Positions 1 through 3,000 of a stretch of DNA of 5,251 bases are shown here, piece by piece. This stretch comes from a virus. Lineage: Duplodnaviria > Heunggongvirae > Uroviricota > Caudoviricetes. Position 1 is the stretch's first letter. Each line of letters starts with the position of its first letter. The stretch is taken from the IMG/VR virus record IMGVR_UViG_2541047122_000016. One strand, written 5' to 3'. Made by a program: the position numbers.

Positions 1-3000
1 ATGGATATACACTGCCACTGTTGCGATTGGCTGTCCTGATACCCTGGCAATGGTTCGCCATTTGGGATCATTTGGCATGTCATGCCACAATCTGAGCCAG
101 GCATTAGCCATACTCACCTCATCTGATACCGAACTTTACCCTCGAACATCCGGAAGAAATCCGGCATGAATATTGTTGGTCAATGCACGACAACAGCATT
201 ACCAGGCTGACCCCCACTGTTAGTCAGGGTGCCCCAGGCGATCGCCGCTGCGACAAAATCATCCACATCTTTCACCAGCCGATCCCTCCGTTCGACGATC
301 TCACGGTAATATTCAGAGCTGTGACTGCGCATACGGGCCACCAGCAGAGGCGGCATTGCCTTTTCGATCGCCGGTAACAGAGCCTGAATTTTTTCAACAG
401 CATCAGGGGTGTCTTTATCCAGCCAACGGAAAATTTTCTGGGTATTACGAGCCAGGGCTTCCGGATGGCTGTCGTCGTACAGTTCCGGGAACGTCATCCC
501 CAGCTCGAAATAAGTCCGGGCTATTTCAGCTGCAGGAACTTTCTCACCGTCCGGATAGGCCCAGGCATTGATCGCCATGCGGATGTGCTCATGTTTGATT
601 TTCATGAATCCCCCTTTCCTTCGCCCTGAGTGGTATCCTTCTTTTTGTAAAGTTCTGGGTTCAAAGATAATTTCCCCTTGGAGTATGCAGCAGCTTCCGC
701 AGCCCTCCCCTTCGGAACTATTTCACCAGGACGCTTACGCCACATGTAAATAGCTTCGCGGGTTATCCCATAAAAATCGGCAACCCTCTGAACAGAACCA
801 AAAAACTGGACAAGTTCATCAACTCGCATTTTACCTCCTAAATCTAAGCATTTTTAGATTGCAAGATAATTTTTTTTAGGTCAATGCAATCTAAAATAAT
901 TTATATTCAATTTGCAGGAGAAAATGATGGAAAGCCTTGGCTTCAGGCTTAAGAGACTTAGAAAAGATAAGGGGCTGACCCAAGTAGAACTGGGTAAGCT
1001 TTCAGGCGTGACTGGGGTTACTATAGGGTACTGGGAGAAAGATCTAAACGAACCAGGTAGCAAAGCTCTAAGTAAGTTAGCCCAGGCATTAGGAACTACT
1101 GAGTCCTATCTCCTATATGGAGTATCGTCTCCTGAATTATCTTTTGTACAAAGTACCTCAGGCACCAAGATCCCCTACCTTTCGTGGGGTGAGGCGATTT
1201 CTTTCCTAATCTTAAAAGGAGAGAAAACAATGGGAAATGTCGATAGAATCACCACATTCTTTGATGTCGAGGAAGGTGATTTTGCCGTTTCAATGCCTGA
1301 TGACACAATGCATAACCCATCAGGATCACCGAGTATCCCAGTTGGTGCTACTGTGATCCTAAGGCCAGGAGAAAGTTATAAAAATGGCAGCATCGTCGCT
1401 GTAATAGTTCCGGATCCGCTTAAAAATGAACCATCTATGACTATAAAGAAATTAGTTATTGATGGGAAGCTTGTGTATTTAAGCCCTCTCAATCCACGCT
1501 ATCAGTCATCCTTACTTACACCAGAGTGTAAAATTGTTGCCGTAGCAAAAGGTGTACAGTTCAACTTATAACCCGCCACGTCCTTTACTTGAGGTCGGCA
1601 ATGCCGACCTTTTTTTTAAATTAATCTAGATTTACCTTGACTGAAAAACTAAATACTTTTAGATTTATTACATACCACCCTACCTCGCCCCACAGAACGT
1701 CGGGCAATACCTCGAGTTACCCGGCAGTGGTCAGGGGTTAAGTAGCCAGCCCGAGGCGTATGAACATGACGGCGGGAACACTTTGTATAACAGCGCAGCA
1801 GGTTTTTAGTTCCGCGACCCGGCGTTAAGGGTAAATGAGGTCAACATGGATATGCTCAATCTTGGCAACAATGAATCTCTGGTGTGCGGAGTATTCCCCA
1901 ACCACGACGGCACGTTTACCGCGATGACGTATACCAGAAGTAAAACGTTTAAAACCGAAGCTGGCGCGCATCGCTGGTTAGCAAGAAACGCTAACTGATT
2001 AGCGCCAGTAAAAACAGGTTTCCACAGGTTAATTTACCCTGAAAAGTCAGGGCATAACACGAAAGCGCACGGCGAAGTTAGTCTCTCTGTATAGGTCGTC
2101 GTTAAATTTAATTCGACCGTGCGCTTCTGGTTGTGGCAATCCGCGAAATGGCGCGGCGGTAAGTATGGCGGGGTTATTCCTTCCCCCGTTGAGGACACCG
2201 GGTTGTCAGGTTGACCATACGCTTAAGTGACACCCCAGCCACAACAACCTCTGTTATCACTTTTCTGGTGATTCGGCGGAAATGGATATCCGCCCTTTTT
2301 AAAGTGAATTTTGTGATGCGGTGAATGCGGCTATGCGCACGCGGAACAGTTAAAGCAGTAAGGCGGTCTTTTACTGGCGTAACGAGCATCAACTAACCCG
2401 ACGTTAATTGTTAACTGGTTAACGTCACCTGGAGGCACCAGGCACTGCATCACAAAATTCATTGTTGAGGACGCGATAATGGAAACGTTATTACCAAACG
2501 TTAATACGTCTGAAGGTTGTTTTGATATTGGTGTTCTGCTCAGTAATAAAGCGTTTACTGAGGATGCCATTAATATGCGGAAATATGAGCCTTATCTGCT
2601 CAATGATAATTCCATTCTTTCCCGAATTGCCCTTATTGAACTTGGTATTTTCGGAGAACGTCAATGACTTCAGCATTTGCACTGATGATGACGGTTTTTC
2701 TTATAACGGGTGAATCACAGAATGTGATTACCGGAATTTATGCCAGTAAAGAATCCTGCCTCCAGGCAAGAGACGAGCAAAAAATTTCTGGTGAATGCCT
2801 CCCGGTAAAAAAAGTATCGCTGTACCTGAATAACGAAACACCGGCTGGATAACCCTCCAGCCATATTAACACCATACCAACGGATTAAAAATGCCAGCAA
2901 TGGCAGGGATTTGTTCACCCTTAAATCTGTAATGAGGTTTATCAATGAGCACTGATAAAGAAGAATTTGCGCTATATTGCGAAGCAAAAAATGACAAAGT

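Follow-up and report, generated by a model that had tools for sequence, protein, structure and literature searches.

Our analysis concerns a structured element lying immediately upstream of the cell-division inhibitor gene dicB in a 5,251-nucleotide (nt) stretch of viral DNA (IMG/VR record IMGVR_UViG_2541047122_000016; Caudoviricetes), referred to below as the window and numbered from its first letter. By its sequence the window is an Escherichia coli O157-type Qin-like prophage, with ~99.6% identity over positions 2200-2700 to the Qin-like prophage of E. coli O157:H7. First come ydaT-like and cro-like genes on the minus strand and then a LexA/CI-type repressor gene (912-1571). These are followed by a promoter, whose operator lies near 1637-1665, by a DUF1391 (ydfA-like) gene and by a conserved leader, and to the right lie a DicF-like small RNA (sRNA), the element, dicB, a ydfD-like gene, a shortened exonuclease gene and an integrase fragment. 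An earlier note on this DNA had described inverted repeats enclosing a palindrome-rich segment between a terminator T-run and the Shine-Dalgarno (SD) sequence of a gene cassette, and this placement was right. The T-run is the end of the DicF-type sRNA and the cassette opens with dicB; the note identified neither, and RNase III was not proposed there. The RefSeq annotation of the 99.6%-identical locus also gives dicB.

A repeat search of the window returned the same arms that the earlier note had reported, 2305-2323 and 2443-2461, each of 19 nt, 95% complementary and separated by a 119-nt spacer, with a perfect 15-bp pair (TGAATTTTGTGATGC/GCATCACAAAATTCA) at their core. The note's rough estimate that such a pair is unlikely by chance also held: no perfect 15-bp inverted repeat with a loop of 3-300 nt arose when the window was shuffled 1000 times with its composition preserved, against an analytic expectation of ~0.0015. 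The sole mismatch between the arms in DNA is a G·U pair in the RNA of the plus strand, where the helix is 19/19; a fold of the minus strand keeps the mismatch. Flanking bases lengthen the RNA helix to 21 bp (2303-2323 with 2443-2463). RNA folding, one of the checks that the note had suggested, gave the element an energy of -60.8 kcal/mol, with z = -5.7 against shuffles.

The plus-strand RNA has five helices, P1 to P5, in a consensus drawn from an alignment of 24 non-redundant copies of the element with a similarly long closing stem (Table 1). P2 has 5 pairs, 4 of which never vary, and is 100% paired in the alignment. The short helix closing P3 is mismatched at A2345·C2397 in the window, and across the alignment 2 of its 3 pairs show double changes; its insert varies among the aligned copies. 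P4 has 9 pairs, 5 of them with compensatory changes, and P5 joins the 3' strand of P1 without a spacer and in 7 of the 24 sequences has exchanged a U-A pair for G-C. The internal palindromes listed in the note all exist and fall into this scheme: ACGTTAA/TTAACGT belongs to P4, CCTGG/CCAGG to P5, and CAGTAA/TTACTG (2356-2361/2370-2375) forms a local hairpin in the variable P3 insert. We rejected a coding role, since the element is overlapped only by short or non-conserved open reading frames (ORFs) and the insert is variable in length and sequence. A consensus scan found no promoter within it.

Table 1. Features of the element and of its immediate neighbours in the window.
Feature	Position	Strand	Description
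DicF-like sRNA	2262..2300	+	seed UUUCUGGUGA; shortened intrinsic terminator (terminator scan) with hairpin 2275-2294 and T-run 2296-2300
P1, 5' strand	2303..2323	+	long closing helix; compensatory changes in 11 of its 21 pairs, and pairing in 98.6% of cells
P2 hairpin	2327..2342	+	GCGGC-UAUGC-GC-A-CGC, after junction AAU of the GGUGAAU motif; near-invariant sequence in the long-stem class
P3 domain	2343..2399	+	closing helix 2343-2345 with 2397-2399; insert variable in length and sequence
Pseudoknot, 5' partner	2347..2353	+	CAGUUAA; predicted to pair with P4 loop UUAACUG (2411-2417)
P4 hairpin	2400..2426	+	GACGUUAAU / GUUAACGUC; stem 2400-2408/2418-2426; loop UGUUAACUG holds UUAACUG (2411-2417)
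P5 hairpin	2428..2442	+	CCUGG-AGGCA-CCAGG; stem 2428-2432/2438-2442; part of the family-wide motif CACCNGGAGGCACNNGGCAC
P1, 3' strand	2443..2463	+	arm 2443-2461 plus 2 pairs
SD and dicB	2467..2667	+	SD GAGGA 2467-2471; dicB 2479-2667, 62 aa; Pfam DicB 6.5e-36

The five helices are supported by covariation, which the note had named as a check. In the alignment 98.1% of cells form standard pairs, and displacing the partners by 1-3 columns lowers this to 33-43%. Of the 43 pairs, 19 have changed on both sides, and none of 500 shuffles reached the observed values. The alignment also tells the strands apart, with 98.1% of cells paired on the plus strand and 91.2% on the minus strand. It holds 82 G·U cells and 11 A·C cells, and therefore the pairing has been selected in the plus-strand RNA and not in DNA. 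A covariance model built from the 24 copies scores the window at 157.9 bits on the plus strand and 34 bits on the minus strand. On this asymmetry and these scores we reject DNA looping, which the note had entertained, together with a cruciform and a minus-strand RNA.

Beyond the nested helices, we found that the core is predicted to form a pseudoknot, in which positions 2347-2353 would pair with 2411-2417 in the P4 loop. Its partners co-vary across the wider family, as in GGCAAA/UUUGCC, ACUGACA/UGUCAGU, GACUGAA/UUCAGUC and AGCUGGC/GCCAGCU. In 78 of 126 sequences the strand is complementary to its own loop over at least 5 bp-equivalents, compared with 20% of cross-paired controls, and the pairings comprise 53 distinct duplexes. 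We found no earlier description of this pseudoknot in the literature.

The search of Rfam, likewise named in the note, returned a sub-threshold match. STnc100 (RF02076) matches 2293-2511 on the plus strand, at 29.5 bits (E=0.0013), which is below its gathering threshold of 47; in the alignment the closing helix and the hairpins P4 and P5 are common to both. All the other long-stem copies that we fetched also match STnc100 on the plus strand below that threshold, at 32.9-43.8 bits, while short-stem copies from other Enterobacterales, retrieved through CACCNGGAGGCACNNGGCAC, score 48-96 bits and are bona fide STnc100. A scan for shared motifs returned copies of both kinds. Conversely, a covariance model made from long-stem copies only (R1) retrieves STnc100 copies at 40-79 bits. 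Judged by these reciprocal matches, the prophage sRNA family STnc100 has a divergent relative in the 119-nt interior, and annotation pipelines miss the element because its score falls below the Rfam gathering threshold. The earlier options of a structured 5' leader or riboregulator and of a small RNA point in the right direction, given an STnc100-related plus-strand RNA with strong covariation directly 5' of dicB; those of a mobile insertion and of DNA looping are not supported. The element itself is not DicF, which lies directly upstream of it in K-12 and in phage Tritos (76.7 and 72.5 bits). It has no Rfam match to a known riboswitch or ribozyme family or to tRNA, and ARAGORN found no tRNA-like gene in the window.

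The element and STnc100 have in common a closing helix opening GGUG...CACC, a GC-rich 5' hairpin after GGUGAAU, a hairpin with a loop of the GU(U)AAC(U/C)(G/A)G type and the CACCNGGAGGCACCNGGCAC hairpin. Their hosts, Enterobacterales prophages, and their strand logic are the same. They differ in P1, which is 6-10 bp in STnc100 and 19-23 bp in the element, and in P2, which in the element has a different and nearly invariant sequence. They also differ in context, the element lying in the early-left operon directly 5' of an ORF, and STnc100 lying either near tRNAs or among the late 'moron' genes, where it has a terminator of its own. Late-region STnc100 copies are Hfq-associated discrete RNAs. 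One member, EcOnc27/sRNA103, found 3' of stx2B in O157, is a discrete RNA of ~235/247 nt that is destabilised without hfq, and another, STnc100_4, is northern-positive in EDL933. According to a 2026 preprint, PasD shares structural homology, and probably ancestry, with STnc100. The enteropathogenic E. coli prophage sRNAs PasD1 and PasD2 would then belong, by their description, to the same superfamily. PasD differs from the element, which has its place in the early-left operon, in being a late-region sRNA encoded near Q and lpxR; it was discovered by RIL-seq with Hfq.

The short-stem relatives have some peculiarities of their own. They occur in head-to-tail arrays of 3-5 copies, some back to back and some interleaved with tRNA genes (L236 3717-5512, L211 110-1688, L216 6386-7029, L187 951-2001, L237 and L227), one of them on a Pantoea plasmid. 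Among the short-stem copies at L128-L247, CC follows within 4 nt of the 3' strand of P1 in 26 of 70 (background 15%) and CCA follows it in 12 of 70 (background 5%). The pattern recalls, if only faintly, the 3' end of a tRNA, although the effect is modest and confounded by the relatedness of the copies. The Rfam model of STnc100 aligns a 3' hairpin to positions 2466-2537 of the window. In the minimum-free-energy fold this same stretch is predicted to form an imperfect hairpin just 3' of P1, in which the dicB SD and start codon pair with dicB codons ~12-20.

Across the family the closing stem falls into two classes. Arm-duplex energies are bimodal, at -25 to -41 kcal/mol for long-stem copies and -8 to -16 kcal/mol for ordinary STnc100. 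Long-stem arms are 17-23 bp and comprise at least 7 unrelated arm sequence types, all of them complementary, while short-stem P1 helices have a mode of 9 bp (28 of 70 copies). Gene context separates the same two classes in a sample of 56 long-stem and 84 short-stem copies. An SD and an ORF start lie within 60 nt of 53 long-stem and 10 short-stem copies; by motif count, a terminator-like GC-run and T-run lies directly upstream of 46 and 9, respectively; and a terminator lies within 130 nt downstream of 2 and 20. We conclude from these comparisons that the long stem is a distinct, selected feature.

Long-stem copies stand 13-35 nt before the downstream start codon, and the genes that follow encode DicB, Kil/KilR, Rha/Ash-type regulators or small peptides. 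When loci were fetched by their DicB or KilR protein, 99 of 100 carried the element, ending 14 nt before the ATG of dicB or 18 nt before that of kilR. Among the protein-fetched loci the exceptions are either copies truncated at the 5' end or loci in which a Rha/Ash gene stands between the element and kilR. Two deletion variants were also seen. One, of 100 nt (L069 6338-6437), keeps the long P1, P2 and P5 and has lost P3 and P4; the other (L393 1273-1483) retains only the 3' half, from P4 onward, before kilR.

The element is widespread. It matches 4642 of 5426 complete E. coli genomes; 4400 genomes, ~81% of the 5426, hold a copy with at least 80% query coverage, and the number per genome has a median of 2 and a maximum of 9. 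K-12 has two copies, in Qin (dicF-dicB) and in Rac (kilS-kilR), neither of them annotated. In Stx phage 75/02 and in Rac-SA53 the element lies 5' of kil/kilR, and in Klebsiella phages it lies 5' of tiny hydrophobic ORFs upstream of kil. A short-stem relative occurs in the ban/tRNA operon of P7, before terB. In every copy examined the element is co-oriented with the surrounding operon.

The Rac locus resembles the Qin locus in more than the element. The K-12 sRNA KilS (b4833; NC_000913.3 1418405-1418502; L249 406-503 on the minus strand) ends at a T-run that directly precedes the Rac element. In Rac-SA53 the corresponding stretch (L007 1945-1999) scores 41.1 bits with the Rfam DicF model, below the gathering threshold of 48. 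KilS therefore looks like the Rac counterpart or a relative of DicF, and the series of sRNA terminator, element and division inhibitor like a shared module. We found no description in the literature of a conserved stem-loop upstream of dicB and kilR.

What the long helix does is suggested by the known processing of DicF. K-12 has DicF species of 53, 72 and 190 nt, and according to papers citing Faubladier 1990 the 72-nt species is made by RNase III, with a 3' end 19 nt past that of the 53-nt form. Anchored on dicF at NC_000913.3 1649382-1649434, this end maps to 1649453, which is the 10th nt of the 19-nt 5' arm of the K-12 element; the arms of that element differ from those of the window by one base. 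The known RNase III cut directly 3' of DicF thus probably falls in the arms. An RNase III dimer holds ~22 bp, cuts both strands and leaves 2-nt 3' overhangs. The near-uninterrupted double-stranded RNA of ~20-22 bp that selection would be expected to keep for such an enzyme is present, as a 21-bp helix in the window and as 17-23 bp in the long-stem copies. The two pairs between the predicted cuts, G2313-C2453 and U2314-A2452, include a G-C pair, as the in vivo rules prefer, and the P1 left after those cuts would be 9 bp, the same as the modal P1 of stand-alone copies. Further, though weak, support for processing in the element comes from a list of sites found by RNA-seq of an rnc mutant, which contains a position inside the K-12 element, 1649470 (26 reads against 0 in wild type, a low count), and one near kilS, 1418510 (41 reads against 0).

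We therefore regard the inverted repeat as most likely an RNase III processing stalk 3' of DicF and, with moderate confidence, as one that separates the sRNA, a core of ~139 nt and the dicB mRNA. The element would be transcribed on the plus strand within the early-left (dicB) operon of the prophage and would fold into a compact RNA, in which the 21-bp P1, about twice the length seen in the stand-alone family, encloses a five-helix pseudoknotted core. On read-through of the DicF-type terminator, we infer that RNase III cuts both strands of P1 in mid-helix, at ~2314/2315 and ~2453/2454; these positions are transferred from the K-12 mapping, and the stagger follows the 2-nt 3' overhang rule. Three products would result: a 3'-extended DicF ending after ~U2314; a core RNA of 139 nt (2315-2453) that retains 9 bp of P1; and a dicB mRNA starting at ~A2454, with a 5' monophosphate and an unstructured, A/U-rich leader of ~25 nt. 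In this way the toxic dicB message would be freed by processing from the sRNA unit upstream of it, and how stable it is and how well it is translated would be set by the same event.

RNase III stalks and sites are familiar from the stems of rRNA operons, from T7 sites of the R1.1 type and from the lambda N-leader site. Like these, the element would place a long helix around a structured RNA or between cistrons, to be cut on both strands and so to separate units. The likeness is one of mechanism by analogy and not of homology; the stalk proposed here encloses a core of the STnc100 type, and its cleavage is our proposal. The closer precedent is the biogenesis of DicF in K-12, where an orthologous element lies between dicF and dicB and the 72-nt species ends, by our mapping, in its 5' arm. 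The accessible literature treats this species only as a DicF 3'-end event, and in it we did not find described the enclosed RNA, its kinship with STnc100, the kilS-kilR element or the placement before early-left genes; Faubladier 1990 may already show the helix.

Several points weigh against a processing stalk. The 72-nt length is known to us through secondary citations, and the annotated ends may be a few nt away from the true ones. The covariation counts rest on ~7 independent arm types, not on 24 independent sequences. The rnc-mutant list is of low resolution, with sites at least 400 bp apart, such that roughly 16% or more of windows of this kind are listed, and its Rac entry, 1418510, falls 5' of kilS, outside the element. 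Ragunathan et al. 2023 detected no full-length ydfABC-dicF-dicB transcripts, and they map only an RNase III site upstream of DicF. Moreover, a plain hairpin suffices for RNase III, and the conserved, complex core implies a further function that our model leaves unexplained.

The site of Ragunathan et al. 2023 is not the helix of the element; we rejected that identification, as it is a different hairpin and lies upstream of DicF. It is conserved in the window at ~2052-2130, where the cut giving the 190-nt DicF should fall, ~190 nt before the DicF 3' end. Because this upstream hairpin is conserved and the element follows, DicF would be bracketed by two double-stranded structures. The hairpin is long and imperfect (GAAAGCGCACGGCGAAG...UUCGACCGUGCGCUUCUGG), with a fold z-score of only -1.8, and the leader that holds it is highly conserved with the ydfC-dicF spacer of K-12.

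It is possible, although we doubt it, that the element is mainly a trans-acting, Hfq-associated sRNA of the STnc100/PasD/EcOnc27 type, in which the arms only excise it from, or stabilise it within, a polycistronic transcript that gives it neither a promoter nor a terminator of its own, and any effect on dicB is incidental. EcOnc27, STnc100_4 and PasD do accumulate, or were found, as discrete or Hfq-linked RNAs, and short-stem copies more often have a terminator of their own (20 of 84 against 2 of 56). The A-rich P3 insert would also fit an sRNA, as would an RNase III product that keeps a 9-bp P1 like that of stand-alone copies. Yet the discrete Hfq-linked transcripts on record are those of late-region copies, the core region in K-12 is covered less in wild type than in the rnc mutant, with no sign there of a stable released RNA, and the near-invariable spacing of 13-35 nt to the start codon is hard to explain in this way. 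Such a role overlaps with the processing model and is compatible with it. Improbable, in our judgement, is a core that acts as a sensor, riboswitch-like or protein-binding, or as an otherwise active RNA gating read-through, processing or translation downstream. The fold does go beyond what a processing site or an ordinary Hfq sRNA would require, with a multi-helix junction, a pseudoknot, and the near-invariant GGUGAAU, P2, UGUUAACUG loop and GGAGGCA conserved across genera. Against this, a P1 of 19-23 perfect pairs is too stable for ligand switching, we found neither an alternative terminator nor an SD-sequestering platform, and the same core occurs where no ORF follows, as before tRNAs, in tandem arrays and before its own terminator; known riboswitch and ribozyme families, as noted above, gave no match. 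Even so, the core may, like its relatives, be set free as a trans-acting RNA, or its role may lie in sensing or in the binding of a protein.

Two further readings leave the helix uncut. That it is an insulator or stabiliser, a stable 5' structure that blocks RNase E from scanning from the processed DicF 5' end or that tunes 30S access, is very unlikely. The position would suit such a role, as in the dicB and kilR copies the end of the helix is 3-6 nt from the SD and 13-18 nt from the ATG, and folds leave the SD outside P1. This reading leaves unexplained why arms of unrelated sequence all keep a P1 of ~21-23 bp, which is the footprint of RNase III, and why the published RNase III-dependent 3' end of DicF, as given in the citing papers, maps into the arm. 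We separately rejected sequestration of the SD by the element, on the same folds of the dicB and kilR leaders. Scarcely credible is mobile DNA resembling a miniature inverted-repeat transposable element, with the arms as terminal inverted repeats, or a protein-binding pair or cruciform acting at the DNA level. A length of ~160 bp, terminal inverted repeats, multiple copies per genome and a homology that stops close to the arms in some phages are all reminiscent of such elements, and the earlier note had proposed a search for target-site duplications. There is none (the flanks are TAAAG and TTGTT), the orientation is always that of the operon and the relative position is constant. The arms differ between lineages yet stay complementary, in part by G·U pairs, which neither DNA nor the opposite strand could form without a mismatch. 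The interior also has homologues in copies whose arms are short; on these grounds we rejected the mobile element. No empty site appeared among the 100 protein-fetched loci, which as close relatives provide a limited test.

Other features of the window bear on the operon as a whole. Aligned with K-12 dicF, the DicF-like RNA has its seed UUUCUGGUGA intact and a 17-nt deletion in the terminator hairpin (GGCGGAAAUGGAUAUCCGCC); the Rfam DicF model gives it no score at E<=1. Mini-DicF copies like this one are probably overlooked when dicF genes of enterohaemorrhagic E. coli are counted. Operator-like repeats (AATCTAAA..TTTAGATT) at 839-907, between the divergent cro-like and repressor genes, recur at 1645-1667, where they overlie a promoter-like site (1637-1665) at the head of the dicB operon, an arrangement consistent with repressor control of that operon. 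Farther right, the recE-like exonuclease ORF (2945-4722 region) has 414 aa, against a 2.4-kb gene in the otherwise matching PV15-279 locus, and runs into a C-terminal integrase fragment (4171-4722); a DinI-like ORF then lies at ~4935-5142. At its left end the prophage is therefore deleted or defective.

In summary, the element is a strongly conserved structured RNA, a long-stem, ORF-proximal variant of the STnc100 family. It would offer a concrete structural basis for the RNase III event reported in 1990, as later papers describe it, that yields the 72-nt DicF. The module is also found ahead of kilR, where it follows the sRNA KilS, and ahead of further early-left genes in Enterobacterales. The STnc100/PasD family thereby gains a new genomic context, overlooked by current annotation, and a predicted, covariation-supported pseudoknot.

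The genes that the element precedes include dicB and kilR, textbook toxic prophage genes. It is tempting to speculate, although we consider it rather unlikely, that on derepression of the prophage RNase III excises an active pseudoknotted RNA of ~130-140 nt, which might serve as a trans-regulator, as a protein decoy or sponge, or as a sensor that gates the cut. Were this so, a second RNA-based function in host takeover would be tied to the block on division that DicF, DicB and Kil impose, and a widespread, unannotated class of functional RNA would be present in ~80% of E. coli genomes, K-12 included.

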